Below, piece by piece: positions 27,044-64,000 of a stretch of DNA of 64,000 nt. Under the pieces are notes generated by a model that was not told where the DNA came from, searched no databases, and was given only the letters and a program-made list of their open reading frames with translations. This DNA is from Desulfobacterales bacterium (GTDB lineage Bacteria > Desulfobacterota > Desulfobacteria > Desulfobacterales > G963662235), in contig OY759308.1 of NCBI GenBank assembly GCA_963662235.1, positions 927,070 to 991,069 of the forward strand, in the 5' to 3' direction. Position 1 is the stretch's first letter. The number at the start of each line of letters is the position of its first letter. The translations under genes were made by a program, and so were the position numbers.

Positions 27044-28108
27044 TTAAAACTCAATTGCGAGTTGTGTTGTAAATGTATCTATTTCTTTTTTTGCATCACC
27101 TTCAAATTCTTGTTGCAGAAGCTCAAAAGACAAGCTGGTATTATCAAAGATGCCCCAGCTTAATACAACGCCAGATTCAGTTTCTGGTAAAAATTCAGCA
27201 CCATCATCAGAGCTACCATAACGAGCTGCTAATTCTATAGTATCTGAAATTGCTACACCAAATTCTACATTTAAGGCTTTTGGCTGCCTTTTTGTTGTCT
27301 CTCCTGTATCATAAAGTTCCCCTTTTTCAAAGCTGTCTGAAGCAGCAATATACTCTCCTGTAAGTTTAAAACGGTCAGCGAACTCATAGGAAACAAAAGC
27401 ACTATAACCAGCTACTATTGATTTTAAAACTTTATCAGTAGTTTTAACTTCTTCATTAAGTCCAGATGCCCCTGCTAAATTTGAAATATAAGATGCACTA
27501 ATATTAAAACCTTCAAAAGGGCTTAATGTAGCACTTGCAAAAAAACTGTCTACCTTATCATCTTCATCTTTTTCTTGAGCGGTAGCATTGAATAGACCTA
27601 ATGATACATCAAATTTTTCATCTGCACCTTTATATCCTGCTATTAATGAAGCAATATTCGATTCCCCTAATGTTAGTGTAACTGGGTCTGTGACAAAATG
27701 GGTCTCATAATTTCCGAAAGGCACAACTAATTTACCTGCAACTACATAAGGGGAGGCATTTCCTTTGCCTGTAATAGTAATGAATCCTTCATCTACTTCA
27801 ATTTTGCCGTCATCATTTTTTTTCAATACAACAGAACCTTCTGCATTGTTACCAGTTGCTACGTTTATACCTAATTCAAAATTACCTAATCCAAGTTCTC
27901 CTTTTTTTTCATCTTGAGAGCCCTTCTTGGAAGTTGTTTGATTTTTAAATTCAACTTCAATCGCTCCACTAAATTGGATATGATTATTTTTAGCGGCACT
28001 CTCTTCCAGTTTTTTTATTCTTTCTTCAATCGTTTCTTGTGCCATAGCATAGGAAGTCATTCCTAAAGTAACAAGCGTTAATAAAATCAAAACGAAACCT
28101 TTTTTCAT
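27044..28108 (-). CDS. Outer-membrane porin with a short N-terminal coiled coil
   Basis: Signal peptide MKKGFVLILLTLVTLGMTSYAMA, then ETIEERIKKLEESAAKNN, then a beta-strand-rich region ending ...TQLAIEF. Confidence 0.65.
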   Translation of the reverse strand: MKKGFVLILLTLVTLGMTSYAMAQETIEERIKKLEESAAKNNHIQFSGAIEVEFKNQTTSKKGSQDEKKGELGLGNFELGINVATGNNAEGSVVLKKNDDGKIEVDEGFITITGKGNASPYVVAGKLVVPFGNYETHFVTDPVTLTLGESNIASLIAGYKGADEKFDVSLGLFNATAQEKDEDDKVDSFFASATLSPFEGFNISASYISNLAGASGLNEEVKTTDKVLKSIVAGYSAFVSYEFADRFKLTGEYIAASDSFEKGELYDTGETTKRQPKALNVEFGVAISDTIELAARYGSSDDGAEFLPETESGVVLSWGIFDNTSLSFELLQQEFEGDAKKEIDTFTTQLAIEF

Positions 28109-28379
28109 AATTTTTTTTCTCCTTTTAATAGCTTTGAATAATCATTTTGTTGAAACTTTAATTATTCAGAGTTTCCATTATATCTATTTTAAAATTTATT
28201 AAACAAAATATAATTAGATTAAATAAAATAAATTATACATATCTAACTTTAAAAGCGTAAGCTATTACAATTTTGGTTTACTTTCTGTCAAGTGTTTTTT
28301 TAAAAATATATACTATTTCATCTTTTTTATGGTGCAGCGGCAATTTTTACAGTTCCTTTAACAAAAAAATGCTTTGCTT

Positions 28380-29633: not shown

Positions 29634-29673
29634 ATATTTATTAGTCCATCTATTATTATATATATCTTAATAT

Positions 29674-29689
29674 ATTAGAATATTCTAAT
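29674..29689. promoter_or_regulatory. Perfect palindromic operator ATTAGAATATTCTAAT (candidate DtxR-family box)
   Basis: The 14-bp core TTAGAATATTCTAA (29675-29688) is identical to the site at 30320-30333. It lies about 40 nt upstream of the 29633 start codon and overlaps TATATT/TATAAT-like -10 hexamers on the minus strand. Confidence 0.6.
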
Positions 29690-29700
29690 TTTTTTAACAC

Positions 29701-29729
29701 AAAAAAACCACCATATTTAGGTGGTTTTT
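29701..29729 (-). terminator. Rho-independent terminator after the DtxR-like gene
   Basis: AAAAACCACC / GGTGGTTTTT stem, with a T-run on the minus strand. Confidence 0.7.
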
Positions 29730-30446: not shown

Positions 30447-30505
30447 GAGACCTTTGTACATAGCTCTATTTCTAAAAGTATAAGGTTAAGTTATGTTATG
30501 GTCTC
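30447..30505. repeat. Family-A palindromic element in the 5' leader of the Fe-S protein gene
   Basis: GAGACCTTTGTACATAGCTCTATTTCT...TATGTTATGGTCTC. The left arm matches the copies at 63946 and 1898. Confidence 0.6.
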
Positions 30506-33168: not shown

Positions 33169-33191
33169 GAGACTTCTACATAGAAGGTCTC
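33169..33191. repeat. Minimal family-A-like hairpin
   Basis: GAGACTTCTACATAGAAGGTCTC, flanked by TATATT...ATAAAC like the 1893-1966 copy. Confidence 0.45.
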
Positions 33192-33215: not shown

Positions 33216-33755
33216 ATGATAAAAAAAGAAGAAGCCGTTTTACTCGTAATTGACATTCAGGGAAAACTTGCAACTTTAATGCATAATAAAGAAAATCTTT
33301 ATCGCTCTCTTCAAACTGTCATACAAGCATTTAAAATTATGGAAATACCTATAATTTGGGTAGAACAAATTCCTGAAAAGTTAGGTAAGACTGTTGATGA
33401 AGTTAGCTCTTTGTTACAAAACGACACTTCAATCAAAAAGCATACCTTTAGCTGTTATCAAAATGATGAATTCAAAAACAAACTTGAAAGCTACAACAGA
33501 AAACAAATTTTAGTTACGGGTATAGAAACACATATTTGTATATATCAAACAACAATGGAACTTTTGCAAAATGGTTATGAAGTTGAAATAGTAGCCGATG
33601 CTGTGTCATCAAGAGAGTATGAAAATAAAAGAATTGCACTTGAAAAGATAGTAAATGCTGGAGGTAAGCTAACAACAACTGAAATGTTAGTTTTTGAGCT
33701 TTTAAAAAGTGCTGATGATAGTAACTTTAAAAAGATTGTACCTCTTCTAAAGTAA
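33216..33755 (+). CDS. Isochorismatase-family cysteine hydrolase
   Basis: AVLLVIDIQGKL... and VTGIETHICIYQT (catalytic Cys context). 179 aa. Confidence 0.75.
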   Translation: MIKKEEAVLLVIDIQGKLATLMHNKENLYRSLQTVIQAFKIMEIPIIWVEQIPEKLGKTVDEVSSLLQNDTSIKKHTFSCYQNDEFKNKLESYNRKQILVTGIETHICIYQTTMELLQNGYEVEIVADAVSSREYENKRIALEKIVNAGGKLTTTEMLVFELLKSADDSNFKKIVPLLK

Positions 33756-33779
33756 AATAGAGAAATTTTATTCTGGTGG
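33744..33779 (+). repeat. 36-bp direct repeat, copy 1 (left flank of the tandem array)
   Basis: CTTCTAAAGTAAAATAGAGAAATTTTATTCTGGTGG is identical to 34375-34410. It contains the hydrolase stop codon. Confidence 0.95.
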
Positions 33780-33785
33780 CCGCTT

Positions 33786-34370
33786 CGACAAGCTCAGCGA
33801 CCTATCGACAAGCTCAGCGACCTATCGACAAGCTCAGCGACCTTTCGACAAGCTCAGCGACCTATCGACAAGCTCAGCGACCTTTCGACAAGCTCAGCGA
33901 CCTTTCGACAAGCTCAGCGACCTTTCGACAAGCTCAGCGACCTTTCGACAAGCTCAGCGACCTATCGACAAGCTCAGCGACCCATCGACAAGCTCAGCGA
34001 CCTATCGACAAGCTCAGCGACCCATCGACAAGCTCAGCGACCTATTGACAAACTCAGCGACCTATCGACAAGTTCAGCGACCTATTGACAAGCTCAGCGA
34101 CCTATCGACAAGCTCAGCGACCTATCGACAAGCTCAGCGACCTATTGACAAACTCAGCGACCTATTGACAAACTCAACGACCTATTGACAAGCTCAGCGA
34201 CCTATTGACAAACTCAACGACCTATTGACAAGCTCAGCGACCTATTGACAAACTCAACGACCTATCGACAAGCTCAGCGACCTATTGACAAGCTCAGCGA
34301 CCTTTCGACAAGCTCAGCGACCTTTCGACAAGCTCAGCGACCTTTCGACAAGCTCAGCGACCCGACCTAT
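33786..34370 (+). repeat. Tandem array of 29 copies of a 20-bp unit (consensus CGACAAGCTCAGCGACCTAT)
   Basis: Counted directly. Units begin every 20 nt from 33786 to 34346. Variants are tails of TAT, TTT or CAT, and TGACAAACTCAACGA-type cores. There are no spacers. Confidence 0.95.
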
Positions 34371-34374
34371 CAAA

Positions 34375-34410
34375 CTTCTAAAGTAAAATAGAGAAATTTT
34401 ATTCTGGTGG
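34375..34410 (+). repeat. 36-bp direct repeat, copy 2 (right flank of the tandem array)
   Basis: Identical to 33744-33779. It contains the pheT stop codon and last codons (minus strand). Confidence 0.95.
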
Positions 34411-37835: not shown

Positions 37836-37954
37836 AATGATTTTAGTGAAAAAAATTTAAATTATAAAAACATCAATTTTTGGCAATTTTGCTCAAAATT
37901 TAGAAAAACTTTTAAGATAACGCTAAGTAAAATCTTATTTTATGTGCAAAACTT

Positions 37955-38308
37955 TTATTGTAGCTTTGATTGTGATATTTTTACTATTTCTTTAAAAGTA
38001 TCTGGCTCTGAAATGGAAAGATTGGAGAGCATTTTTCTATCTATGTCTACGTTAGCAAGCTTCAAACCATACATAAATTGATTATAACTAAGCCCTTCTT
38101 TTCTTACTCCAGCATTTATTCTTGTAATCCATAGAGCTCTAAATTCTCTTTTTTTAACTTTTCTATCTCTGTATGCGTAACTTAGAGACTTTGCAACAGC
38201 ATCGGCAGCAGTTCTAAAAAGTTTACTTCTGCCACCTCTAAACCCTTTTGCAAGGTTTAAAATTTTTTTTCTTCTATTTTTTGCTTTATAACTTCTTTTA
38301 ACACGCAT
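37955..38308 (-). CDS. rplT: 50S ribosomal protein L20
   Basis: MRVKRSYKAKNRRKKILNLAKGFRG... Confidence 0.95.
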   Translation of the reverse strand: MRVKRSYKAKNRRKKILNLAKGFRGGRSKLFRTAADAVAKSLSYAYRDRKVKKREFRALWITRINAGVRKEGLSYNQFMYGLKLANVDIDRKMLSNLSISEPDTFKEIVKISQSKLQ

Positions 38309-39080: not shown

Positions 39081-39237
39081 TTTATCCTCCTAATTTTCTA
39101 AATTATTACTTATATAAATGATAAGATTTCAATAATCTTGATATCTTCTAATTTAAGAAAATCAGAATAACTAAGTAACTTTTTTTTAAAATTCAAGTAA
39201 TATTTTTATATTTTTAAAAACAGAAGTAAAAAAATAT

Positions 39238-50580: not shown

Positions 50581-51864
50581 ATGGCGAATCCTCTTCAAAA
50601 CATTATGAAACTGCCAGAAATTAAGAGAAGAATTCTTGTAACTCTTCTTTTTTTATTTGTGTATAGAATAGGAGTACACGTTCCAACACCTGGGATTGAC
50701 GGTGGTGCACTTCAAGAAATATTCAATGCAAATAAAGGTGGCATTCTTGGTATGTTCAATATGTTTTCGGGTGGAGCTCTTGAAAGACTTTCTGTTTTTG
50801 CTCTTGGTATAATGCCATATATTAGTGCTTCAATTATTTTACAACTTCTTACCGTAGCTATTCCTCATCTTGAAAGATTATCTAAAGAAGGAGAGCACGG
50901 AAGAAAAAAAATCACACAATATACAAGATACGGTACAGTTCTTTTAAGTATCATACAAGGGTTCGGTATCAGTGTTGGACTTGAAGCTATGAATGCAGTT
51001 ATAAGTCCAGGTTGGTCATTTAGAATAATGACAATATTAACACTTACAGCTGGTACAGCTTTTATTATGTGGCTTGGTGAGCAAATTACTGAAAAAGGGA
51101 TAGGAAACGGTATCTCTTTGATTATTTTTGCAGGAATTGTTGCAAGGATGCCTGTTGCAACTGCCAATACATTTAGATTGATTTCTTCGGGTGAAATGTC
51201 TGCTTTTTTCGTTATAATACTACTTGTTATTATGATTGGTGTTGTAGGGTTCATAATATTTTTTGAACAGGCACAAAGAAGAATTGTTGTACAATATGCA
51301 CAAAGAGTTGTAGGCAGAAAGATGTTTGGCGGACAAAGTTCATATCTTCCGTTAAAAGTAAACACTGCAGGTGTTATTCCTCCGATTTTTGCATCTTCTA
51401 TAATGATGTTCCCTGCTACTGTTGCAAGTTTTATTGATATTCCTTTTATGAATACAGTGAAAGATATGCTTATGCCGGGGAATGTTTTATATGAAATTAT
51501 TTTTGTAATTTTTATTTTTTTCTTCTGTTTTTTTTATACTGCAATAACTTTTAATCCTAAAGATATTGCTGAAAATATGAAAAAAAATGGGGGTTATGTC
51601 CCAGGGATAAGACCTGGTAAAAAGACTTCAGAATATATTGATAGAGTTTTATCAAGAATCACTCTTGGTGGTGCGACTTATGTTTCTGCAATATGTGTTT
51701 TGCCTTCTATCCTTATGACAAAATTTAATGTGCCATTTTATTTTGGTGGTACAGCACTTTTAATTGTCGTGGGAGTAGCAATAGATACTATAGCTCAAAT
51801 AGAATCTCATATGACAACCAGAAACTATAGTGGTTTTCTGAAAAAAAAACTTAAAGGAGCTTAG
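50581..51864 (+). CDS. secY: Preprotein translocase subunit SecY
   Basis: 427 aa, 10 TM; [19 protein letters not shown]...[21 protein letters not shown]. Confidence 0.97.
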
Positions 51865-52086
51865 ATGTCTGTCAAGGAAGAAGCTATAAAAGTTCAGGGG
51901 AAAGTACTTGAGACTCTTCCCAACGCTACATTTAAAGTTGAATTAGAAACCAAGCATCAAATAATTGCACACATTTCTGGTAAGATGCGTATGCACTTTA
52001 TTAAGATATTGCCAGGTGATACTGTTACAGTTGAGCTTTCACCTTATGACTTAACTAAAGGTAGGATTACTTATAGAGAAAAATAA
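51865..52086 (+). CDS. infA: Translation initiation factor IF-1
   Basis: [17 protein letters not shown]...[35 protein letters not shown]. Confidence 0.97.
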
Positions 52087-52202
52087 GACCTTTACACATA
52101 ATGTTTTTTATTAAAAAACAGTGATTGTTTTTGTAAAACATTAATTTTTGATAATTTTACAAAAACTTATAAAACCATTATAAAGTATATGTGCAAAGGT
52201 CT
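52086..52202. repeat. Family-A palindromic element, long copy (117 bp), inserted between infA and rpmJ
   Basis: AGACCTTTACACATAATG...TATATGTGCAAAGGTCT termini, plus the internal inverted repeat TGTTTTTGTAAAA/TTTTACAAAAAC. The left end overlaps the infA stop codon. Confidence 0.75.
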
Positions 52203-52265
52203 TAAAGATAAGAGATTTTTGGGTAATCTTTAAAAATCTTAAAATAAATATAAAGAGATAAAAAA

Positions 52266-52379
52266 ATGAAAGTAAATGCTTCTGTAAAGAAAATATGTAA
52301 TAAATGTAAAGTTATAAAAAGGAAAGGTGTTGTTAGAGTTATTTGTGAAAATAAAAGACATAAGCAAAGGCAAGGATAA
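52266..52379 (+). CDS. rpmJ: 50S ribosomal protein L36
   Basis: Not in the ORF track (37 aa). My translation is [37 protein letters not shown], the canonical L36 zinc-ribbon sequence. Confidence 0.93.
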
Positions 52380-52382
52380 AAA

Positions 52383-52757
52383 ATGGCAAGAATTTCAGGT
52401 GTAGATATACCAAAACAAAAACATATACTAATTTCTTTAACTTATATTTTTGGAATAGGCAAAAGTAGAGCAAAAAATATATTAGATAAGCTTTCTATTG
52501 ACCCTATGATTGAAACAGAAAAGTTGAGTGATGAAGAAATAAATAAGATTCGTAAATTTATTGACACGGAATATAAAGTAGAAGGTGAGCTTCGAGCAGA
52601 AAGGTCAATGAATGTAAAAAGACTTATGGATATAGGATGTTATAGAGGTCTGCGTCATAGAAGATCTTTACCTTGTCGTGGTCAAAATACTCAAACTAAT
52701 GCAAGAACACGAAAAGGACCTAAGAAAACTGCTATTAAAAAGAAAAAGAAAATCTAA
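52383..52757 (+). CDS. rpsM: 30S ribosomal protein S13
   Basis: [26 protein letters not shown]. Confidence 0.97.
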
Positions 52758-52775
52758 AAGAGGTTAAAAATAAAA

Positions 52776-53165
52776 ATGGCAAAAGCAAAAAAGCAGATTA
52801 AAAAAAAGATTAAAAAAAATATATCAAGTGGAATAATTCATATCCAGTCCACTTTTAATAATACGATTATAACGGTTACAGACATAGCGGGTAATGTTGT
52901 TTGTTGGTCAAGTGCTGGCGTACAGGGCTTTAAAGGAGCAAGAAAAAGTACTCCTTTTGCGGCACAGCTTGTTGCTGAAGATATTGCAAAGAAGACAAAA
53001 GAATATGGCATCAAAACTTTTGAAGTCTATTTAAATGGTCCTGGCGTAGGTAGAGAGTCGGCTTTAAGAACATTACATGGTGCGGGTTTTACAATCACTC
53101 TTATTAAAGATGTAACACCTATTCCGCATAATGGTTGTAGACCTTCAAAACGTAGAAGAGTTTAA
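52776..53165 (+). CDS. rpsK: 30S ribosomal protein S11
   Basis: [18 protein letters not shown]...[14 protein letters not shown]...[13 protein letters not shown]. Confidence 0.97.
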
Positions 53166-53179
53166 TAAGGAGAAAAATT

Positions 53180-53806
53180 TTGGCAAGATATAGAGGACCT
53201 GTTTGTCGTTTATGCAGGCGAGAAAACTCAAAGCTTTTTTTAAAGGGAGATCGTTGTTATTCAGACAAGTGTGCTTTTGAAAGACGTTCTTATGCACCTG
53301 GACAACATGGTCAAAGAAGAGGCAAATATTCAGACTATGGAGTTCAGTTAAGAGAAAAACAAAAGGTGAAAAGAGTTTATGGCCTTTCAGAAAAGCAGTT
53401 TAGACTTGTTTTTAAAAGAGCTGAAAAGAAAAAAGGTATGACAGGCTTAACATTACTTAATTTTTTAGAAAGAAGATTAGATAATGTAATATATAGATTA
53501 GGTTTTGCGAGTTCAAGAACTCAAGGTAGACACTTAGTAAAGCATGGTCATTTTATTATAAACAATAAAAAAGTTGATATACCTTCATATGTTGTAAAAC
53601 AGAACGATGTAATTGAGGTAGCTGAAAAGAGTAAAAATATAACTGCTATTAAAGATTCTATAGAGGCTGTTGTAAGAAGAGGTGTTCCTGGTTGGCTTAG
53701 TTTTGATAAAGAAGGATTTAAGGGTACCGTTGTAAATATGCCAGAAAGAGAAGATATTACCTTACCTATACAAGAACAGCTTATAGTTGAACTTTATTCT
53801 AAATAG
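53180..53806 (+). CDS. rpsD: 30S ribosomal protein S4
   Basis: [15 protein letters not shown]...[10 protein letters not shown]...[15 protein letters not shown] start. Confidence 0.97.
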
Positions 53807-53924
53807 CTTTAACAAAAAGCTACAAGCATAATCATATTTTATGCTTAACAATAGAAAAGTTAATTTTTATTATGCAGATAGAAAAACATTATTAATGTTT
53901 TTAATTTTTTAAAAGGAGACGTTG

Positions 53925-54923
53925 ATGTCATTAGATGATATAGTTTTTATAAATTGGCGAGAAATGATTAAGCCAAAAAAAATCAATGTAGAGGGCGATA
54001 AATTTTATGGTAAATTCGTTTGTGAGCCTCTTGAACGTGGTTTTGCTTTAACTATTGGCAATGCTCTCCGTAGAACTATTTTATCATCCATATATGGTCC
54101 TGGTATTGTTTCTGTTCGTTTTAAAGATGTATTGCACGAATTTAGTGTTATTCAAGGTGTCTTAGAAGATGTTTCAGAAATTATCCTTAATATAAAAGAG
54201 TTAAAGATAAAGGTTACGGATACCAAAGAGAGAGTTTTACATCTTAAAGTTTCAGGAAGAGATGCTACAGCCAAAGATGTAGTTAGTAAAGATGGAGGAG
54301 TAGAGATTTTAAATCCTGATCTCCATATTGCTACAATTTCAAAAGGGGCTGAGCTTGATATGGAAATGGTTGTTAAAGTAGGCAAAGGATATGTAGCAGC
54401 AAAAGACAATAAAGATGAAGATATGCCTATAGGAACTATCCCTATAGATACTATCTTTTCTCCGATAGAAAGAATAAAGTTTGATGTTTCAAGTTCAAGA
54501 GTTGGACAAAAAACAGATTACGATAAACTTACTTTTGAAGTTTGGACAGATGGTAGTGTTCTTCCAGAAGATGCAGTAGCTTATGGCTCTAAAATATTAA
54601 AAGAGCAATTAAACTCTTTTATTAACTTTGATGAAGAGAGTGAGCCTGAAGAAGAAAAGCCAAAAGAACAAGAAGAAAAGAAACAATATAATGAAAATTT
54701 ATATAGAAAAGTAGATGAGCTTGAGCTTTCAGTAAGGAGCTCAAATTGTCTTAAAAATGCTGATATAGATTATATTTATCAGTTAGTTAAAAGAACAGAA
54801 GGAGATATGCTTAGGACTAAAAATTTTGGTCGTAAATCTCTTAATGAAATAAAAGATATATTAGGTGAAATGGGACTTCGTTTCGGAATGGTTCTTGATG
54901 AGGATTTTGAAATTCCGGTTTAA
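53925..54923 (+). CDS. rpoA: DNA-directed RNA polymerase alpha subunit
   Basis: [12 protein letters not shown]...; C-terminal domain [15 protein letters not shown]...[11 protein letters not shown]. The ATG at 53925, 6 nt after AAGGAG, is preferred over the TTG at 53922. Confidence 0.96.
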
Positions 54924-54951
54924 TCTTTTTTTATGAATAAGGTTTTTTCAG

Positions 54952-55584
54952 ATGAGACATAGAAAAACACGTTTAAAGCTAAGTAGAACAGGTGAGCATA
55001 GAAGAGCTATGTTCAGAAATATGGTAACTTCCCTGTTTGAACATAATCAAGTTAAAACTACTACACCTAAAGCTAAAGAGCTTAAAAGGTTAGCAGATAA
55101 GGTTATAACTCTTGTTAAAAAAGGCGACTTAAGTGCAAGACGTAATGTATTATCTTATATAAGAGATAAAGAGATTGTGCATAAGCTTTTTGAAGAATCT
55201 AATGAACGTTTTATGCATACAGACAGTGGATATACCAGAATATTTAAAGTTGGTCTTAGAAAAGGTGACGCTGCTCCTATGTCTCTTGTTATTCTTTCTG
55301 AAGGTAAAAAAGAGACAAAGAAAGTTAAGCCTAAAAAGGATGAAAAGTTTATAAAGGAAAAAGAGTTAGATAGCGTAGCTTTAGAAGATAAAGAAAATGT
55401 TCAAGAAGAAGTAGAAGCAAAAGAAGAGGCTAAAGAAGCTGATGTAGTAGAGGGTAGTGATGATAAAAATGATGAAATAAAAGCCGAAGAGAGCGAAGCT
55501 AAAGACGATCAAAGTGATGTTGATAAAGAAGATGATGCTAAAGATGAAGAGAAAGAGAACTTAGAGGAAACAGAAAAAAAATAA
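54952..55584 (+). CDS. rplQ: 50S ribosomal protein L17 with a ~90-aa acidic C-terminal extension
   Basis: MRHRKTRLKLSRTGEHRRAMFRNMVTSLFEHNQVKTT is canonical L17. From about residue 120 onward the sequence is a K/E/D-rich low-complexity tail. Confidence 0.93.
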   Translation: MRHRKTRLKLSRTGEHRRAMFRNMVTSLFEHNQVKTTTPKAKELKRLADKVITLVKKGDLSARRNVLSYIRDKEIVHKLFEESNERFMHTDSGYTRIFKVGLRKGDAAPMSLVILSEGKKETKKVKPKKDEKFIKEKELDSVALEDKENVQEEVEAKEEAKEADVVEGSDDKNDEIKAEESEAKDDQSDVDKEDDAKDEEKENLEETEKK

Positions 55585-55607
55585 GTAAAACTTTACATAT
55601 AACAATT

Positions 55608-55652
55608 AAAAAAAAAGCCTTAAGGTTAATTTAACCTTAAGGCTTTTTTTTT
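55608..55652 (+). terminator. Rho-independent terminator of the ribosomal superoperon
   Basis: GCCTTAAGGTTAA-T-TTAACCTTAAGGC palindrome flanked by an A-run and a T-run. Confidence 0.85.
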
Positions 55653-55675
55653 GATTTTGTTTTAAGAATAGAAAT

Positions 55676-55716
55676 AAAAAAGGCTCAAAAGTATTTAAAA
55701 CCTTTGAGCCTTTTTG
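55676..55716 (-). terminator. Rho-independent terminator downstream of ppaC (bidirectional shape)
   Basis: AGGCTCAAA / TTTGAGCCT stem with flanking A-run and T-run. Confidence 0.75.
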
Positions 55717-55745
55717 TTGTTTTGATTTATGTCTCTTTTTATATC

Positions 55746-56666
55746 TTAAGCGAACGCTTTTTCAAAATTTGGAACAACCTGTTTTTTTCTACTCATAACG
55801 CCGTCAAGCCAAACTTTTCCGCCTTCTACTTTTTGACCAAAAGCTTTTTCAACAACAGATTCATCATCTGATGCAACAAGCATTTCAGAACCTTCTTTCA
55901 TAATATCTGTTAGAAGTAAAAATACACTATGACGAGAACCTTCTGCTTTGAGTTTTTTAATATCTTCAGCTAAATCATTTTTGATATTGTCAACAAGAGA
56001 AAGGTCAACAAGTTCTAATTGTCCTATACCAACTTTTTTGCCGTTCATATTAAAATCTTTATAATCTCTTTCTACAAGTTCTCTCATTGGAGTTCCTTCA
56101 ATTGCAGATTTAACTTTAAACATTTCCATACCAAGAGCTTGAAGGTCACTTGCTCCTGCAATTTTTTGAAGAGCTTTTGCTGCTTCTTTATCTTTTTCTG
56201 TGCAAGTTGCTGATTTGAAAATAACTGTATCACTTAAAATAGCACAAAGCATAGCACCTGCTATACCTTTTGGAATTTCAACATTAAAAAAATCGTACAT
56301 AGCTTTGATAATTGTTGCTGTACAGCCTACTGGCCAAATCCAACATTCAAGAGGTTGTTCTGTTGTGATATCTCCAAGTTTATGATGGTCAACTATACCA
56401 AGGATATTAGCTTCTTTAATATCATCCATACATTGAGCAATATCAGAATGGTCAACAAGAAAAACATCTTTGCCTTTTACAGATGTCATAATTTCAGGTG
56501 CAGAAAGAGAAAATTTATCCAAAATAAATTTTGTTTCTGGGTTTAAATTACCTTGAATTACAGGTACTGCTTCTGTACCTATTTTAGATTTTAAATCAGC
56601 TAGAGCAATCGCTGAGCAAACAGTATCGCTATCGGGATTTTTATGTCCAAACACATATGCGGTCAT
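55746..56666 (-). CDS. ppaC: Manganese-dependent inorganic pyrophosphatase (family II, DHH)
   Basis: VFGHKNPDSDTVCSAIALA, VDHSD and GIVDHHKLG DHH motifs, plus a DHHA2 C-terminal domain. 306 aa. Confidence 0.92.
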   Translation of the reverse strand: MTAYVFGHKNPDSDTVCSAIALADLKSKIGTEAVPVIQGNLNPETKFILDKFSLSAPEIMTSVKGKDVFLVDHSDIAQCMDDIKEANILGIVDHHKLGDITTEQPLECWIWPVGCTATIIKAMYDFFNVEIPKGIAGAMLCAILSDTVIFKSATCTEKDKEAAKALQKIAGASDLQALGMEMFKVKSAIEGTPMRELVERDYKDFNMNGKKVGIGQLELVDLSLVDNIKNDLAEDIKKLKAEGSRHSVFLLLTDIMKEGSEMLVASDDESVVEKAFGQKVEGGKVWLDGVMSRKKQVVPNFEKAFA

Positions 56667-56817
56667 TATATTCTTCCTCCATTTAATAATTTTGAGAGCT
56701 TCTATAAAAAGTTCTCTTTTTTTAAAAATTAAAATTGTGCTTTGTAAAAAAATTAATTATGAAAACTTATGATTCATAAAAGCTATTAACTTTTAAGTGT
56801 TTTTTCATAAAACACAT

Positions 56818-56856
56818 TATGTACAAAGGTCTTATGCTTTTATGTGCAAAGTTCTC
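56818..56856 (+). repeat. Two tandem right-arm fragments of the family-A element
   Basis: TATGTACAAAGGTCT (56818-56832) and TATGTGCAAAGTTCTC (56841-56856), in the ppaC / carboxylase-like divergent spacer. Confidence 0.5.
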
Positions 56857-56973
56857 ACTAATACTGCATTCACTCAATCTATTTGTTTTTTAAAATCTGT
56901 CAAGACATTTTGCCATAGTGTTTTTTTTGAGCAGATTAATTTTTAACCCATTTTAAAATTTTAGAAATAGAAG

Positions 56974-59526
56974 ATGACATTGAAAAAGATACCTAAAGAG
57001 TTTTATACAAAATTTACAAAAGATGAGCTTTTTGAAATAAAAGCCATTTTTAATAAATTTATTACCGCAGGTGAAAATAAAAAAGCTGAAACCTATCTTA
57101 AAGTTGTTAAAGAGAAAAAAGAGTCGCCTCTCAATTTACGAAAATTAATCAATATTACCCAAAACGAATATACAAGCTATGCTAAAAAGAAAGATATATT
57201 AAACTTTAAAATAGATTATATCCTTATAGCTAATAGAGGCGAGATAGCTTTTAGAATGTTAAAAGAAGCTCACGCTTTAAGTAAAAAAGTTATAATCCTT
57301 TATGAAGAGAACGATTTGTCTTGGGATGAGTTTTTAAAAAAGGACGATATAGCGATACAAATAAGATCTTATTGTGATAGAGGTAAAAAAACAGAAGATA
57401 GATATGATGTTCAGGATATGTGGAAAGTAAGATTAATTATTGAAAATCAAAATATAGAACTAAGTAAAGTCGCTGTCTTTTCTGGATACGGTTTTAATTC
57501 TGAAGATGAAAAGTGGATAAAAGCTGTAGAAGATCTTGGTTTTAGAATATGTGGTCCCTCTTCTGATAGTATCCATGCTTTTGGTTTAAAAACTCAAGCT
57601 AATGCAGTTGCAAAAGAAAGTAAGCTTTTCCCTCCTCTTACTTCTGGTTCCATTTATCATATTGATGCAATGTCTACTGCTGAAAAAGAACAAAACTTAG
57701 CTAAAGCTATTGCTTTTTATGAAGATTATAAGGGTGTAATAACTTCTTTTCTTTTGAAAGATGCAAGAGGCGGAGGAGGTAGTGGACAATTCAAAATAGA
57801 CAATCCGACAAGAGAAGAGTTTGAAACAGCTTTAATAAATTTTGCAGAAAAAAAAGAGATTGTTGAATTTAGTGTTGATGAATTTATTGTAGGGACAAGG
57901 CATATTGAGTTTCAAGTTGTAAGTGATTGGGATGGAAACGTAGGTATTGTAGGTATTAGAGATTGTTCTGAACAACTTCAAATGCAAAAAATAGAAGAAG
58001 AGGTGGCAAATCAGATACCTTTAGAATATTGTGAAAAGTTTAAAACAGCTATCGTTAAATTTTTTAAAAGATTAGAGGAAAAGATAGGTCATCCATATGT
58101 TGGGCTTGCGACTGTTGAAACGATGTACAAGCCCAGTGCTGTAAAAAATCATTTTAGGTTTCTTGAAGTCAATCCTCGCCCTCAAGTTGAACTACCTGTT
58201 ACTGAAATGCAATCGGGTTTTAATCTCATTAGTTCTTTGATAGATATTGTAGAAGGGAAAAAAATAAGGTCTCAAAGCGATATAGAAAAAGAGGATATAG
58301 GTGGCACTACAATTGAAGTTCGACTTACTTTGCAAGATGTCTTTGATGAAGAGATGATTAAGTTTATGAGAATTCAGGGTAGGAATAAAATATTATATCC
58401 TACAGCAGGAGTTTTCGATGTATTTAGTCTCCCTGAAAACGAACAAAATACGATTATACACAAAGACCCACGCCTTAAGAAAGGGGTTTATGTTTCTGGT
58501 AAATATGACCCTATGATAGCTAAAGTAGTTATTCATAAAGATTTAAAATATGATGAAACCATAAGACAAAACAGATTAAGTACCATTTCCGATATAAAAA
58601 AAGTTATAAAAAAAATTAAGATTAAGGGAAAAGGTTTAAACACTAATAAAAGAATCCTGCTTGATATTTTAGACCACGATATATTTTTAAATAGAAATCA
58701 CCGTTCTGAAACTGTAGCCCCCAGTGTAGTTGCAAATATAAGAGCAGAAAATTTGGAAAGGGCGATAAGAGATAAGTATAATCCTTACAATTTTTCTGAT
58801 AATTTAACTAAGATGTTTTGTATTGCAAAATTAGGAGCTCTTACAAACTCACAAGTTAAAATATTTGAATCTTTTACAATAGGTTACGGTAAATTTTTAA
58901 CAGTTGTGGAAAATAGAGTTAGAAGAGAGATAAGTAAGATAAAAAGAGATTTGGGTTTTGATGATTTGCAAAAAAGACTTATGATATGGTTGCAAAATCA
59001 TATGGAAGAAGGTGAAAAATGCTATATATTCAAAAATCATATACAAAAAAATATAGTTTCTACACACTTTAGGTTTCATCCTTTTTTCTTTCCTTTTTTT
59101 GAGCTTTTTATAATGGCACTTGGACTTAAACCCGAAGAGGCAATATTAAATTATGAAGATAGGAAACTTACTAGTGTTATTATGCAGGATGATAATGAAT
59201 CTTATGACTTGCTCTATATACAAAGATTTGTAGATACCGAAAAAGGTCGCAGTGACTTAAAGGATATGGTTAGTGTCAAAAGACTTTATAGAAAAGATAA
59301 ATTTAAGTTAAGAGATGCAGAGGTTTTAAAGGCTATAGCCAACAAAGTTTTTAATAGTGATAATAAAGAAAAGAAAACTAACGGTGAACTATTGCAGGAG
59401 ATGTTTCCTGATACTACCTTCAAAAATGGTTTTTTATCCCTCGATAAAGGTCAAGTTAAGATTTTTAAACATATTTTCTATTGCTTAACTAAAATAAGAT
59501 TTAAGACTTGTTTTAAAGAGGTTTGA
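56974..59526 (+). CDS. Divergent biotin-carboxylase-like ATP-grasp protein with N- and C-terminal extensions of unknown function
   Basis: ILIANRGEIAFRMLKEA, KDARGGGGSGQFKI, QMQKIEEEV, FLEVNPRPQVELPVTEM, TTIEVRL and YDPMIAKVVIH...GLNTNKRILLDIL are colinear with the biotin carboxylase motifs. Residues from about 590 to 850 and residues 1-80 are unassignable. I recognised no biotinyl (BCCP) or carboxyltransferase domain. Confidence 0.6.
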   Translation: MTLKKIPKEFYTKFTKDELFEIKAIFNKFITAGENKKAETYLKVVKEKKESPLNLRKLINITQNEYTSYAKKKDILNFKIDYILIANRGEIAFRMLKEAHALSKKVIILYEENDLSWDEFLKKDDIAIQIRSYCDRGKKTEDRYDVQDMWKVRLIIENQNIELSKVAVFSGYGFNSEDEKWIKAVEDLGFRICGPSSDSIHAFGLKTQANAVAKESKLFPPLTSGSIYHIDAMSTAEKEQNLAKAIAFYEDYKGVITSFLLKDARGGGGSGQFKIDNPTREEFETALINFAEKKEIVEFSVDEFIVGTRHIEFQVVSDWDGNVGIVGIRDCSEQLQMQKIEEEVANQIPLEYCEKFKTAIVKFFKRLEEKIGHPYVGLATVETMYKPSAVKNHFRFLEVNPRPQVELPVTEMQSGFNLISSLIDIVEGKKIRSQSDIEKEDIGGTTIEVRLTLQDVFDEEMIKFMRIQGRNKILYPTAGVFDVFSLPENEQNTIIHKDPRLKKGVYVSGKYDPMIAKVVIHKDLKYDETIRQNRLSTISDIKKVIKKIKIKGKGLNTNKRILLDILDHDIFLNRNHRSETVAPSVVANIRAENLERAIRDKYNPYNFSDNLTKMFCIAKLGALTNSQVKIFESFTIGYGKFLTVVENRVRREISKIKRDLGFDDLQKRLMIWLQNHMEEGEKCYIFKNHIQKNIVSTHFRFHPFFFPFFELFIMALGLKPEEAILNYEDRKLTSVIMQDDNESYDLLYIQRFVDTEKGRSDLKDMVSVKRLYRKDKFKLRDAEVLKAIANKVFNSDNKEKKTNGELLQEMFPDTTFKNGFLSLDKGQVKIFKHIFYCLTKIRFKTCFKEV

Positions 59527-59544
59527 TTTTTTTACTTTCAGCTC

Positions 59545-60264
59545 TTAAAGGTTTTGAATAATTTCAACCATATCTTTGACTGCTTGTTTTATACCTACAA
59601 AAACTGCTCTTGAAATTATTGAGTGTCCTATACTGAACTCATCAATTAAATTGCTAAAGCCTTTGAATTTTTTAACAGTGGTATAACAAAGCCCATGTCC
59701 TGCATTTACCTTTAAACTTAACTCTTTTGCAAATTTGGCTGCATCTATAATTTTTTTAAACTCTTTTTCTTTTTTTTCGTTTGTTTCTTCGCAAAATTTT
59801 CCAGTATGAATTTCTATAGCATCTGCATCGATATTTTTTGCACACTCAATCTGTTTAGTATTAGGGTCAATGAAAATACTAACAGGAATATTGGCATTTT
59901 TAAATATATGAATGGTTTCGGCTGTTTTTTTTTCATACTTTATAACATCAAGCCCTCCTTCAGTACTTATTTCTTCATCTCTTTCTGGTACCAAAGTGAT
60001 AAGCTCCGGTTTTATCTTTAAAGCAAAATCAACCGTCTCTTTTCTATTTGCCATCTCTAAAATAAGTTTTGTCTTAACTGTCTTTCTTAAAATTTCGACA
60101 TCTCTTTCTTGTATATGTCGTCTGTCTCCTCTTAAATGTACGACTACACCATCTGCTCCTCCTATTTCTGCAAGTCCTGCAGCTGTTACAGGTTCTGGAT
60201 AATTAACTTTTCTTGCTTCTCTTAAAGTTGCAATATGGTCTACATTAACAGCTAATGTACTCAT
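59545..60264 (-). CDS. pdxJ: Pyridoxine 5'-phosphate synthase
   Basis: LAVNVDHIATLREARKVNYPEPV...VHLRGDRRHIQ...IEIHTG...NAGHGL. Confidence 0.95.
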   Translation of the reverse strand: MSTLAVNVDHIATLREARKVNYPEPVTAAGLAEIGGADGVVVHLRGDRRHIQERDVEILRKTVKTKLILEMANRKETVDFALKIKPELITLVPERDEEISTEGGLDVIKYEKKTAETIHIFKNANIPVSIFIDPNTKQIECAKNIDADAIEIHTGKFCEETNEKKEKEFKKIIDAAKFAKELSLKVNAGHGLCYTTVKKFKGFSNLIDEFSIGHSIISRAVFVGIKQAVKDMVEIIQNL

Positions 60265-60281
60265 TTTTTTCCCTCTCTTTT

Positions 60282-60388
60282 AGACCTTTACACATAACAC
60301 TCTCTTTCACTTTTGTTTTGGGTTTGACGTATTAAATATACTACTACACCACAAAACAAAAGTAAAATAGAGCTATGTATAAAGGTCT
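60282..60388. repeat. Family-A palindromic element, full-length copy (107 bp)
   Basis: Left end AGACCTTTACACATAACACTCTCTTTCACTTTTGTTTTGGG. Right end CACCACAAAACAAAAGTAAAATAGAGCTATGTATAAAGGTCT. The reverse complement of the right arm matches 63947-64000 almost base for base. Confidence 0.8.
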
Positions 60389-60392
60389 TGAA

Positions 60393-60869
60393 TTAAATTA
60401 AAATTCTTTTTTGTTTAAAAAAATCTTGTATTATCGTTTTTGTCTCGTTTTTTAAAACTCCTGAAACTACTTCAACTTTATGATTCAATCTGCTATCTTT
60501 TGAAAAATCGTAAAGAGAAGAGCATGCTCCCCATTTTTTGTCAAAAGCTCCAAAAACAACTTTTTTTATTCTGGCGTGAATAATAGCCCCCATACACATT
60601 ATACAAGGTTCAATTGTAACATACATAGTTGTATTAATGAGTCTGTAATTTTTTGTTTTTTTTGAAGCCGTTTTTATTGCAAGAATTTCAGCGTGTGCAG
60701 TTGTATCATTTTTTGAAATAACTTGATTGTGCTTTCTTGCGATAATTTCTCCTCTACTATTTACAATGATAGCTCCTATTGGAACTTCATTCTTTAAAAA
60801 AGCTTTTTTTGCCTCTTTTAAAGCGATATCCATATACTCTTCATCATTTTTTATTGGTTTACTTTTCAT
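60393..60869 (-). CDS. tadA: tRNA adenosine(34) deaminase
   Basis: HAEILAI...TIEPCIMCMGAI zinc-deaminase motifs. 158 aa. Confidence 0.9.
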   Translation of the reverse strand: MKSKPIKNDEEYMDIALKEAKKAFLKNEVPIGAIIVNSRGEIIARKHNQVISKNDTTAHAEILAIKTASKKTKNYRLINTTMYVTIEPCIMCMGAIIHARIKKVVFGAFDKKWGACSSLYDFSKDSRLNHKVEVVSGVLKNETKTIIQDFFKQKRILI

Positions 60870-60954
60870 TGTGTTTTTTTAGTTACATAAATAAAAACTA
60901 TGTTATTCAATAAGTTTTAATAAATATAAACGAATATATTTTTCTTATAAAAAA

Positions 60955-62097
60955 ATGGCAAAAGAGCAAACTACTACATATAGAGCAAAATGGCTTATTA
61001 TAAACCCATATAAAATAATTGAAAATGGTTTTTTAAAAGTAAGAGATGGTATTGTTGTAGATGTAGGGAAATTTAATTCTAAATTTAAAAGTGAAAATGT
61101 AAAAGATTTTGGAGAAAGCGTTATTTTACCTAAACTTATAAATGCCCATACTCATCTTGAACTTTCTATCTTAAAAGAAAAATTTAATGGGGATTTAGAT
61201 TTTTTAAGTTGGATAAAAGATTTAATTAAAGAGAGAGATAAATTTACAAAAGAAGAGTTAGTAATTAGTGCTAAAAATGAACTAAAAAAAATAAAATCGA
61301 CAAGCTTTTTCTGTGAAATTTCCAGCCTAAATATTACAAAAAATCTATTTAATGATTTACATATTAATGGTATGTTTTTTTTAGAATTGCTTGGAAGTAA
61401 GTTTCAATCTTATAAGCTACACGATAACGCTTTTATGCAAAGCTCTTTGGCGTGTCATGCCCCTCATAGCTCTTCTCCTTTGCTTTTGCAAAAGGTGAAA
61501 GATTATACAACTAAAAGAAATAGTCTGTTTTCTATTCATACAGCAGAGTCTAAATATGAAACTGAATTTATAAATAACAAAAGTGGTAGTTGGGCTTGTT
61601 TTTTAAAAGAGAGAAACGTCGATTTTAAAGATTGGGAAATATCAGAAAAGAGCTCTGTTGAACATTTAGAGAAACTAAAAATTTTAGATGATAAAACTCT
61701 TTTAGTACACATTCTTGAAGCAAGCGAAAAAGATATGGAGATTATAAAAAAAAAAGGTGCTAAAGTTTGTGTTTGTCCGAGAAGCAATTTTTTTTTACAC
61801 AAGAAACTCCCCGATATATGTAAAATGCTCAAATTAAATTTAAAGCCAGCACTCGGCACAGATAGTCTTGCAAGTTGTGAGACTATTGACATTTTTGATG
61901 AAATGGCTTTTATCTACAAAAATTATAGTGATATTAAACCAGAAGAGATTTTTGAAATGGCTACAATAAATGGTGCTAAGGTTTTTTCTCGCAATAATCT
62001 TGGCTCGCTTGAAAAAGATACAAAAGCTTACTTCTTAAATCTTAAAATATCTGAAAATAATAAGAATAAACTTATTGAAAAAATTATAAATTATTAG
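60955..62097 (+). CDS. Amidohydrolase-superfamily metal-dependent deaminase/hydrolase (chlorohydrolase / aminofutalosine-deaminase-like)
   Basis: LINAHTHLELS, SLACHAPHS, FSIHTAES, LLVHIL and ALGTDSLAS are the amidohydrolase metal-ligand blocks. Substrate not determinable. Confidence 0.6.
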   Translation: MAKEQTTTYRAKWLIINPYKIIENGFLKVRDGIVVDVGKFNSKFKSENVKDFGESVILPKLINAHTHLELSILKEKFNGDLDFLSWIKDLIKERDKFTKEELVISAKNELKKIKSTSFFCEISSLNITKNLFNDLHINGMFFLELLGSKFQSYKLHDNAFMQSSLACHAPHSSSPLLLQKVKDYTTKRNSLFSIHTAESKYETEFINNKSGSWACFLKERNVDFKDWEISEKSSVEHLEKLKILDDKTLLVHILEASEKDMEIIKKKGAKVCVCPRSNFFLHKKLPDICKMLKLNLKPALGTDSLASCETIDIFDEMAFIYKNYSDIKPEEIFEMATINGAKVFSRNNLGSLEKDTKAYFLNLKISENNKNKLIEKIINY

Positions 62098-62141
62098 AGA
62101 GCTTTAAAAAGTAAGGAATAAAGAAATAAAGAGATAAAGAT

Positions 62142-62429
62142 ATGAAGATAACAAAAGACGAAATATTATACGTTGCAAACCTTGCCAAAATAGAACTTAA
62201 AAAAGAAGAGGAGGAAAAAATTTCAAGTCAAATAGAGAATATCCTTGAATATATTAAAAAAATAGATGCACTTGACACAAGTGATGTAGAACCTACTTAT
62301 AACACGCCTATTGGTTCAAATTTCTTTAGAGAAGATATCATAAAAGAGCACTTGGGCAGTGAAACGTCTCTTTTTAATGCTCCTGAAAAGGATGATGGAT
62401 ATTTTATAGTACCTAAAATAATAAAGTAA
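62142..62429 (+). CDS. gatC: Asp/Glu-tRNA amidotransferase subunit C
   Basis: MKITKDEILYVANLAKIELKKEE...ILEYIKKIDALDTSDVEPT. Confidence 0.93.
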   Translation: MKITKDEILYVANLAKIELKKEEEEKISSQIENILEYIKKIDALDTSDVEPTYNTPIGSNFFREDIIKEHLGSETSLFNAPEKDDGYFIVPKIIK

Positions 62430-62434
62430 AAAAA

Positions 62435-63904
62435 ATGGATTTATGTAAATTAACACTATTTGAAGCACACAACTTATTAAAAAAAAAAGAGATCTCTTCT
62501 GTTGAATTGAGTAAAAGTTTTTTTGAAAGAATAGAAACAATAGAAGATAAAATTGGCGCATATATAACAGTTACTAAAGAGAGTGCTTTAAAAGAGGCTG
62601 AAAAAGCTGATGAAAGAATTAAAAAGGGAGACATATCTTACTTAACAGGTATCCCCTTATCTATAAAAGATTTAATGTGTACAAAAGGAGTTAAAACCAC
62701 TTGTGCATCGAAAATGTTAGAAAATTTTATACCACCTTATGACGCTTTTGTTATAAAAAAACTTAAAGAAGCGGGTGCTGTAATTTTGGGGAAAACTAAT
62801 ATGGACGAGTTTGCTATGGGCTCTTCCAATGAAAACTCTAATGTAAAAAAAGTTCACAATCCATGGGATGTAACAAGAGTACCTGGAGGCTCAAGTGGAG
62901 GGTCGGCGGCATCTGTTTCTGCTGATATGTGTATATCCTCTCTCGGTTCAGATACAGGTGGTTCAATAAGACAACCTGCTTCTTTTTGTGGAGTAACAGG
63001 TTTAAAACCTACCTATGGAAGAGTTTCAAGGTTTGGACTTATAGCTTTTGCTTCTTCGCTTGATCAAATAGGACCTATCACAAAAGATGTACAAGATTCT
63101 GCAATGCTTTTAGAAACGATATCTGGTTTTGATGAAAACGATTCTACTTCATCAAAAGAGAAAGTCCCTACTTTTTTTGAAAATATTAAGAATATTAAAG
63201 ATTTAAAGGGTGTTAAAATAGGAGTTCCTGATGAGTATCTTGTCAGTGGAACAATTGATGATGAAGTGTATGAAAAAATCAAAGAGGCAGTAGATGTGCT
63301 TAAAAAAGAGGGTGCTGAAATTATAAATGTATCCCTTCCTCATACAGAGTATTCAATTGCTGCTTATTATATAATAGCACCATCTGAAGCAAGTTCCAAT
63401 CTTGCAAGGTATGACGGTGTTAAGTATGGCTTTCGTGATAAAAATCAAACAGATTTAGAAAGTATGTATAAAAAGACAAAATCTATTGGGTTTGGTGATG
63501 AAGTTATAAGAAGAATAATTCTTGGAACTTACGCACTCTCTGCAGGCTATTATGATGCTTTCTATAAAAAAGCATCGCAGATAAGAACGCTAATTATTGA
63601 CGATTTTAAGAAAGCTTTTGCTAAATGCGATATTTTAATTGCTCCTACTACACCTACTTGTGCTTTTAAAATAGGCGACAAATTAAACGATCCTCTTGCG
63701 ATGTATTTTTCAGATATTTTTACAATCTCTGCTAATCTTGCAGGTATTCCAGCTATGAGTCTTCCTTGTGGTTTTTCTAAAGAGAATTTACCTATTGGTA
63801 TGCAATTTATGGGTAACTATTTTGATGAAGAAGCAATATTAAAAGCTGGTATTGTTTATCAAAATAGTACCACTTTTCATAAAGAGAGACCGAAGGTATC
63901 TTAA
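62435..63904 (+). CDS. gatA: Asp/Glu-tRNA amidotransferase subunit A
   Basis: Amidase signature GGSSGGSAASVSAD...GSDTGGSIRQPASFCG. 489 aa. Confidence 0.96.
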   Translation: MDLCKLTLFEAHNLLKKKEISSVELSKSFFERIETIEDKIGAYITVTKESALKEAEKADERIKKGDISYLTGIPLSIKDLMCTKGVKTTCASKMLENFIPPYDAFVIKKLKEAGAVILGKTNMDEFAMGSSNENSNVKKVHNPWDVTRVPGGSSGGSAASVSADMCISSLGSDTGGSIRQPASFCGVTGLKPTYGRVSRFGLIAFASSLDQIGPITKDVQDSAMLLETISGFDENDSTSSKEKVPTFFENIKNIKDLKGVKIGVPDEYLVSGTIDDEVYEKIKEAVDVLKKEGAEIINVSLPHTEYSIAAYYIIAPSEASSNLARYDGVKYGFRDKNQTDLESMYKKTKSIGFGDEVIRRIILGTYALSAGYYDAFYKKASQIRTLIIDDFKKAFAKCDILIAPTTPTCAFKIGDKLNDPLAMYFSDIFTISANLAGIPAMSLPCGFSKENLPIGMQFMGNYFDEEAILKAGIVYQNSTTFHKERPKVS

Positions 63905-63945
63905 CTTAAGAGTTTTATATAAAAATTTAAAAGTTTACTAAAAGA

Positions 63946-64000
63946 GAGACCTTTGCACATAGCTCTATTTTGCTTTTGTTTTGTGGTGCAGTAGTATATT
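63946..64000. repeat. Family-A palindromic element, left arm (runs off the window)
   Basis: GAGACCTTTGCACATAGCTCTATTTTGCTTTTGTTTTGTGGTGCAGTAGTATATT matches the reverse complement of 60334-60388. Confidence 0.75.

Follow-up and report, generated by a model that had tools for sequence, protein, structure and literature searches.

Intergenic palindromes with IS5-type ends in a small, low-GC bacterial genome are very probably recently mobile miniature inverted-repeat transposable elements

We analyzed a 64,000-nucleotide stretch of contig OY759308.1 (assembly GCA_963662235.1, Desulfobacterales bacterium, positions 927,070 to 991,069), hereafter called the window, which has a base composition of 31% G+C. 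Near its right end, a 109-nt palindromic element lies between the stop codon of tadA (60393) and the start codon of pdxJ (60264), all on the minus strand. The first-pass annotation of this DNA had listed the element as one copy of a family of palindromes with conserved termini and had described the family as either REP/BIME/ERIC-like or MITE-like (miniature inverted-repeat transposable element). Every copy on that list was present, with coordinates right to within 1-4 nt. All copies are intergenic, as had been claimed, and several adjoin stop or start codons. At infA, where an overlap between the stop codon and an element had been noted, the first two bases of the element do supply the AA of TAA, which preserves the stop codon.

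The family is recognized by a terminal inverted repeat of 16-17 nt, GAGACCTTTGCACATA(A/G), which is present at both ends of an element. Both strands of the window together held 10 matches to GAGACCTTTGCACATA with at most 3 mismatches. Dinucleotide-preserving shuffles gave a mean of 0.48 matches, and none of 100 shuffles reached 10, indicating that the palindromic family with conserved termini is real. A Hamming scan of the window with the 17-mer GAGACCTTTGCACATAA found 9 termini at up to 2 mismatches, compared with 0.05 expected. At 4 mismatches, 7 were seen versus 1.75 expected by chance, and at 5 mismatches, 17 were seen versus 14.6 expected. Because observed and expected numbers are about equal at 5 mismatches, we took the motif matches with 4-5 mismatches at 28094, 3584, 22796 and 61431 to be chance and set them aside.

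We compared the window with a sister genome (ENA ERZ21862600 contig_2, 1,604,105 bp; loci L076-L079), which was reached via cluster members of the window proteins and whose aligned DNA shares 97-99% identity with the window. A multiple alignment of eight copies from the two genomes shows a single non-coding master element of about 198 nt that has the same inverted terminus at both ends and two differing subterminal regions. One of these, End-A (GAGACCTTTGCACATAGCTCTATTTTGCTTTTGTTTTGTGG...CCCAAAACAAAAG.., with ..GCTCTATTTTGCTTTTGTTTTGTGG..), holds a long internal hairpin. The other, End-B, reads GAGACCTTTGCACATAATGTTTTTTATGAAAAAAATAGTG.. and ..ATGTTTTTTATGAAAAAAATAGTG.. The long copies in the sister genome measure 198, 199 and 178 nt. 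The 109-nt copy at 60281 corresponds to the End-A half fused directly to the opposite terminus, the 119-nt copy at 52085 to a terminus fused to the End-B half, and the 64-nt copy at 1897 retains only about 20 and 45 nt of the two ends. The 109-, 119-, 64- and 59-nt forms have thus all kept both termini and lost interior sequence, and the solitary ends and a 23-nt hairpin are further decay products. In the window the elements are 23-244 nt long, and in the sister genome they reach 199 nt. The interiors had earlier been described simply as variable. Their lengths do differ, and the alignment shows them to be nested internal deletions of the one master of about 198 nt. The members in the window are as follows.

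1897-1960, plus strand: complete 64-nt deletion derivative with End-A at its left end and End-B at its right end.
4521-4764, no strand assigned: degenerate composite member of about 244 nt, between ribE and ribBA.
5989-6021, plus strand: solitary decayed End-A fragment, directly after the ribBA stop codon.
30447-30505, plus strand: 59-nt derivative whose left terminus is that of End-A and whose right terminus, ..TATGGTCTC, is shortened.
33169-33191, no strand assigned: minimal hairpin of 23 nt, GAGACTTCTACATAGAAGGTCTC, containing no more than the outermost terminal bases.
37940-37956, minus strand: solitary degenerate terminus, AAAAGTTTTGCACATAA (13/17), adjoining the rplT stop codon; a weak call.
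52085-52203, minus strand: complete 119-nt derivative, End-B on the left, between infA and rpmJ in a ribosomal-protein operon.
56798-56856, plus strand: tandem right arms, namely a terminus preceded by End-B subterminal sequence (to 56833) and then a solitary terminus.
60281-60389, minus strand: the complete 109-nt derivative flagged at the outset, an End-A hairpin module with the opposite terminus.
63946-64000, plus strand: the left (End-A) part of a full-length element that is cut off by the window edge.

Comparison of the two genomes provided occupied and empty versions of individual sites. The infA-rpmJ spacer of the sister genome is a clean empty site, TATAGAG-AAAAAT-AAGAG, and that of the window reads TATAGAG-AAAAAT-[119 nt]-AAAGAT-AAGAG, so that the 119-nt copy is flanked by AAAAAT and AAAGAT. 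The reciprocal case also occurs: a 198-nt copy is found in the sister genome only, and the window site is empty near 39105-39125. A partial deletion was seen at the 1897 copy, whose right end, together with 24 nt (1950-1984), is missing from the sister genome between GCAAAG repeats. At window positions 14590-14700, the sister genome has an End-B end and the window has unrelated sequence. The copies at 4521, 5989, 30447, 33169, 37940, 56798 and 60281 are common to both genomes. The two genomes differ at 3-4 of about 10 sites. Copies were thus mobile, or were lost, after the split between two genomes that are still 97-99% identical.

Several copies are bracketed by short direct repeats. The 64-nt copy at 1897-1960 lies within a perfect 5-bp repeat, ATATT (1892-1896 and 1961-1965). 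The element cut by the right edge of the window has an orthologous sister copy of 199 nt (L079 12992-13190) with a perfect 5-bp duplication, AAAGA. A nested copy in the sister genome is flanked by GATT. We estimate from base frequencies that a perfect 5-bp flank match would arise by chance with a probability of about 0.002.

Conservation between the genomes helped to interpret the more decayed members. The trace previously noted at 4521 proved to be the left end of the decayed element at 4521-4764, both termini of which match at 13/17 (GAGGTCTTTACATATAA and TTATGTGTAAAAGTTTT) and which is kept in the sister genome. Its interior consists of C-rich modules from a second repeat family, and other genomic copies of this interior run on into ...AACATTATGTGCAAAGGTCTC / ...TATGTGCAAAGGTCTC. 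The trace at the 5989 site is a genuine decayed end; the sister genome reads AAGACCTTTACA / AAGACCTTTACAAAGTCTATTTTG at this position. The 59-nt copy at 30447, in the divergent region between genes for a DtxR-type repressor and a 4Fe-4S protein, carries additional substitutions in its termini in the sister genome. The tandem right ends at 56817-56833 and 56840-56856 lie in another divergent region, between DHH/DHHA2 pyrophosphatase-like and biotin-carboxylase-like genes, and are kept in the sister genome. The 37940-37956 terminus is identical in the two genomes, and the 109-nt copy differs by 2 substitutions.

The ability of complete copies to fold into long hairpins, claimed in the first-pass annotation, was borne out by folding energies far below those of shuffled controls. 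For the 109-nt copy, the two strands gave -38.6 and -50.9 kcal/mol (z -9.3 and -11.2). The 119-nt copy gave z -5.7, the 64-nt copy z -5.9 and -6.9, and the 33169-33191 hairpin, which is identical in the sister genome, -9.9 kcal/mol (z -3.5). This hairpin potential follows from the inverted repeats together with the internal palindrome of End-A.

We estimated the abundance of the family from public sequencing data. One Logan contig (L001), from a public run, covers precisely 52086-60329, with an element at either end. Matches to the single 109-nt element at 85% identity or more were found in 58-88 contigs in each of four runs that contain the window. Within this element, word depth summed to 380-1100 times that of its flanks in these runs, and coarser single-position estimates gave 25-120 times, all of which are rough figures because the runs look like metagenomes with strain variants. 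At the window's density of 10 sites per 64 kb, the whole genome (2,133,799 bp) would have about 300. A fair reading of these numbers is a copy number of the order of a hundred to a few hundred. The family explains why short-read assemblies of this organism break every few kilobases.

We then asked where these ends are found outside the lineage. An exact 16-mer scan of genomes, one per species, returned at least 61 loci, and among the matches listed most were single chance matches. Two Flavobacteriales metagenome-assembled genomes (MAGs), again among the matches listed, have many copies of the 16-mer, typically at a distance of about 35 nt from the end of a contig, a pattern that marks a repeat at which assemblies break. 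Where enough sequence follows the 16-mer, an open reading frame (ORF) begins about 45-90 nt inward and codes for MSFASYDVDRRTSKNKFFKEID.., the N-terminus of a DUF772 transposase. A protein search with a 44-residue transposase fragment from a MAG found only 2 fragments. Full-length relatives were reached through a search of a representative library, a read-through of the frameshifted L067 copy and a second homology search. They are proteins of 342-375 amino acids with DUF772 and DDE_Tnp_1 domains, some of which are named 'IS5 family transposase' by NCBI or JGI (e.g., in Flagellimonas pacifica and Bacteroidota MAGs). The best NCBIfam model for six full-length proteins from the representative search was NF033581, IS5 family transposase (2.5e-64 to 6.8e-81).

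The ends of these transposons match those of the window family. The transposase genes lie in elements of 1290-1317 bp whose left end reads GAGACCTTTGCAC(T/A/G).. and whose right end reads ..T(G/T)CAAAGGTCTC; the right end of L068 is degenerate (..CAAAGGTCAC). The left repeat of L075 matches the window terminus at 17/17, and the termini of L068, L070, L074, L084 and L094 match at 13/13 or better. Four independent full-length insertions are flanked by 5-bp target duplications (ATCTA, TTCTA, GTCTC and GGACG). The duplication length thus agrees between the full-length elements and the short copies, where it is also 5 bp (ATATT, AAAGA). Short GAGACCTTTGCACATA..GGTCTC hairpins were also seen in the unrelated genomes of Thiomicrorhabdus, Frisingicoccus and Prochlorococcus (L018, L028 and L050); these could be chance occurrences or else solo or mini forms derived from this IS5-type end. 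Among viral contigs, one transposase query gave no confirmed relative, and the 17-mer matches were only chance matches in coding sequence. A scan of metagenome contigs with an End-B 21-mer gave 4 unrelated matches, and the elements of this lineage were not visible in that collection.

We looked for coding capacity and for signals that the host might use. A tblastn search with five IS5 transposases against the window and 85.5 kb of overlapping sister loci found no transposase remnants (best E = 0.76). Pfam scans of 20 neighbouring proteins identified ordinary housekeeping genes, with no transposase and no RAYT among them. In a scan of 51500-64000, no intrinsic-terminator pattern was found at the four element sites (52085, 56798, 60281 and 63946), and 12 terminator-like sites were found elsewhere, including canonical ones near elements. 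The whole window had no match in Rfam 15 at gathering score. Promoter-like hexamers overlap some termini (e.g., 52205-52177), and the region scanned held no excess of them (50 versus 51.8 in shuffles). The infA-rpmJ copy is absent from the sister genome and is therefore dispensable; since it lies upstream of essential genes, it cannot be a strong terminator, and it evidently does not block expression of the downstream genes.

Taken together, these results make it very probable that the palindromes are short, non-coding and recently mobile MITEs, non-autonomous derivatives of an IS5-family transposon. The MITE-like option of the first-pass annotation is borne out by the terminal inverted repeats, the target duplications, the lack of coding capacity, the many copies and the filled and empty sites. 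Its other option, with a cognate transposase of the RAYT or IS200/IS605 type, does not fit termini of the IS5-family DDE type or 5-bp duplications, which REPs do not make. REP/BIME-type extragenic palindromes are spread by RAYT, an IS200/IS605-like HUH tyrosine transposase that acts on single-stranded hairpins, and they resemble the window family in being intergenic, palindromic, numerous and often located beside gene ends; hairpin-only forms such as 33169-33191 add to the likeness. However, RAYT/REP systems do not produce a clean filled/empty pair any more than target duplications, and REPs are imperfect palindromes of 20-40 nt, whereas the window elements reach about 200 nt with two distinct ends. 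The elements also start with GAGACC and lack a conserved GTAG/CTAC head, their termini are identical to those of IS5-family DDE elements, and no transposase of any kind was found in the fetched sequence by the IS5 tblastn or the Pfam scans of 20 neighbouring proteins. We therefore find a REP/BIME origin scarcely credible.

The likeness among copies could instead have been kept by selection on structural RNA or DNA signals of the host, such as terminators, 3'-end stabilizers, processing sites or operators. Stable hairpins (z down to -11), positions directly after stop codons (infA, ribE, ribBA, tadA and rplT) or just before start codons, and the conservation of several copies between the two genomes would suit such a role. 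This explanation is nevertheless very improbable given that no intrinsic terminator is scored at any of the four element sites in 51500-64000, whereas canonical terminators nearby are picked up; that Rfam gave no match; that the sister genome lacks the infA-rpmJ copy upstream of essential genes; that copies also occupy divergent promoter regions (30447 and 56798); and that the 30447 termini are decaying in the sister genome. The duplicated flanks, moreover, point to insertion events. A further possibility is that many full-length insertion sequence (IS) copies were each internally deleted in place, and that nothing transposed as a miniature element. Solitary ends and nested or composite arrangements (56817-56856; L079 16064-16272) look like such wreckage, and IS5-family relatives elsewhere frequently carry frameshifts or survive as fragments. 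Yet independent loci share one architecture of about 198 nt and identical internal junctions. On its own, the interior of the 109-nt form reaches a depth hundreds of times that of single-copy sequence. At a clean polymorphic site, what was inserted is a 119-nt form, and tblastn found no trace of transposase coding sequence in any copy. We regard decay in place as a very unlikely source of the family.

Some observations weigh against IS5-derived MITEs as the explanation. The cognate transposase was not found in the organism, for which 64 kb of the genome and about 74 kb of the sister genome were covered (about 140 kb in all, representing about 85 kb of distinct locus). Full-length elements with the matching end came only from Bacteroidota or from unlabelled metagenome contigs, and the EF-Tu of the window organism is nearest to Thermodesulfobacteriota, at 84-85% identity. 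A recognizable duplication is present in only 3-4 of about 9 complete copies. The polymorphic infA-rpmJ copy has 6-nt flanks with one mismatch rather than a clean 5-bp repeat, and the sister-only insertion site is not clean, as neighbouring bases differ. The copy number rests on unitig depth in metagenomic assemblies, in which several strains or species may carry the element. A secondary, exapted effect may also exist at individual element loci.

As judged from the IS5 family at large, the MITEs would be mobilized by an IS5-family DDE transposase encoded elsewhere, which would bind both terminal repeats. The enzyme would excise or copy the element and insert it where AT-rich DNA has been cut with a 5-bp stagger, and subsequent repair would leave the 5-bp duplication. 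The elements are probably selfish and would survive only where insertion is tolerated, in intergenic spacers and often at gene ends, and any effects on RNA structure or expression would be incidental. A bolder version of this model, in which an IS5-type MITE has grown to hundreds of copies in the small (2.1 Mb), low-GC genome of an uncultured sulfate reducer akin to Thermodesulfobacteriota, possibly with no resident cognate transposase, seems to us unlikely. If the transposase were truly absent, amplification might have been carried out by an enzyme visiting through horizontal transfer from another phylum, a suggestion that stems from full-length elements with these ends being found only in Bacteroidota. 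Alternatively, the host might have taken over some copies as RNA hairpins within operons (infA/rpmJ and tadA/pdxJ).

The host itself is probably an uncultured, unusually low-GC member of the Thermodesulfobacteriota, judging from its sequences. Beyond the two genomes, no relative of its EF-Tu reaches 90% identity; the best named relatives, at 84-85%, are Thermodesulfobacteriota and Desulfobacterales MAGs. Genes in the window use Shine-Dalgarno sequences. At 6225-13716, aprB and aprA are followed by three genes consistent with qmoA, qmoB and qmoC, which together form a dissimilatory sulfate-reduction cluster. The presence of this cluster in a 2.13-Mb genome of 31% G+C is an unusual combination for a Thermodesulfobacteriota-like organism.

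The elements also bear on gene annotation. The 64-nt copy sits 3 nt upstream of an ATG at 1893 that could start a minus-strand FabH-like gene. The longest ORF of this gene begins at a GTG at 1909, within the terminal repeat of the MITE, and the gene caller chose the same GTG in the sister genome. If the ATG at 1893 is the true start, any ribosome-binding site would come from the AAAGG of the element. Knowledge of the family thus flags gene-start calls that fall inside repeats, such as this one.

Other repeats and segments were noted in the window. The second repeat family lies at 2040-2200 and 4555-4720 and consists of C-rich modules (..CCCCTTAAAAGGGG.. and ..TTTCGGCGAACCCCC..) that include an 87% inverted pair, 2125-2169 and 4641-4685. 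Its Logan depth is about 25-40 times that of the flanks, and its modules also occur within some GAGACC-ended elements (e.g., L079 13100-13150). The ribE-ribBA spacer is occupied by the 244-nt degenerate element, and no FMN riboswitch reaches gathering score anywhere in the window, the regions upstream of ribE and ribBA (3516-4790) included. A minisatellite with a 20-bp unit, TCGACAAGCTCAGCGACCTA, and about 29 repeats lies at 33785-34362 between an isochorismatase-family gene and pheT and is far more GC-rich than the genome. It is bracketed by a direct repeat of about 36 bp, CTTCTAAAGTAAAATAGAGAAATTTTATTCTGGTGG (33745-33780 and 34375-34410), that includes the stop codon of the upstream gene, and the array is apparently shorter in the sister genome (about 419 nt). 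A 2.7-kb segment at 27029-29723 is present only in the window and contains two minus-strand ORFs, one of 354 amino acids with no Pfam match and the other of 417 amino acids. A 1.6-kb segment found only in the sister genome (L077 8355-9978) contains two small ORFs and lies between the gene for a 4Fe-4S protein and a sulphur-transport gene. Neither segment is bounded by MITE termini.

The filled and empty sites described here could serve as strain-typing markers for the lineage, and the family offers a clear-cut instance of a transposon recently active in a small genome. Abundant small palindromic repeats of a MITE-like kind are familiar from other small genomes, such as the Correia elements of Neisseria and the RUP and BOX elements of Streptococcus pneumoniae. 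These are often co-transcribed with their neighbours and can form long RNA hairpins. Their termini and duplications are unlike those of the window family: the duplicated target of Correia elements is TA, and RUP has been linked to IS630-Spn1. A literature search found no paper with the literal terminus sequence. The family is a known kind of element that reveals no new mechanism, and by terminus its closest published relatives are ATR with ISNme1 and BrickBuilt with ISPg1.

ATR offers the closest parallel. Its proposed parent is ISNme1, an IS5-family element of Neisseria meningitidis with the end GAGACCTTTGCAAAA, which shares its first 12 bases with the terminus GAGACCTTTGCACATAA of the window family (PMC4596501, Table 2). 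Both ATR and the window family are AT-rich, non-coding, intergenic and multi-copy, and mobilization in trans by an IS5-family transposase has been proposed for both. ATR comes from another phylum, however, and its interior is probably unrelated. It is present at 19 copies per genome (PMC4596501), whereas the window family, with about 10 sites in 64 kb and a depth hundreds of times that of the flanks, appears far more numerous. No resident parent IS was found for the window family in the sequence covered.

BrickBuilt and MITEPgRS/MITE464 of Porphyromonas gingivalis, whose parents are the IS5-family elements ISPg1, ISPg9 and ISPg4, have GAGACCTTTGCA / TGCAAAGGTCTC termini like the window family (PMC4596501). 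The end of BrickBuilt reads GAGACCTTTGCA and that of ISPg1 reads GAGACCATTGCA; ends of the GAGACCTTTGCA type are listed for ISNme1, ISPg1 and BrickBuilt and, by implication, for ATR (PMC4596501, Table 2). Like the window family, these MITEs have a modular interior and an intergenic location, are polymorphic for filled and empty sites among strains and contain no transposase remnant (PMC4596501). BrickBuilt differs in carrying a 23-nt minisatellite between leader and tail, where the window family has a long hairpin module, and in its reported irregular duplications of 2, 4 or 5 nt, where those of the window family are mostly 5 nt. A further difference is that the P. gingivalis parents are resident in the same genome.

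The full-length IS5 elements of Bacteroidota with GAGACCTTTGCAC ends (Flagellimonas pacifica P0174, MAG P0165 and JGI L075) share 13-17 of 17 terminal bases and the 5-bp duplication with the window family. Unlike the MITEs, they are 1.29-1.32 kb long and encode a DDE transposase of 347-361 amino acids (NF033581). None of them is the direct parent, because their subterminal sequences are unlike End-A and End-B. These comparisons extend IS5-derived MITEs with GAGACCTTTGCA ends, known from Neisseria and Porphyromonas, to a probable third phylum, and the identity of the terminal repeats reaches past the 12 bases noted before.

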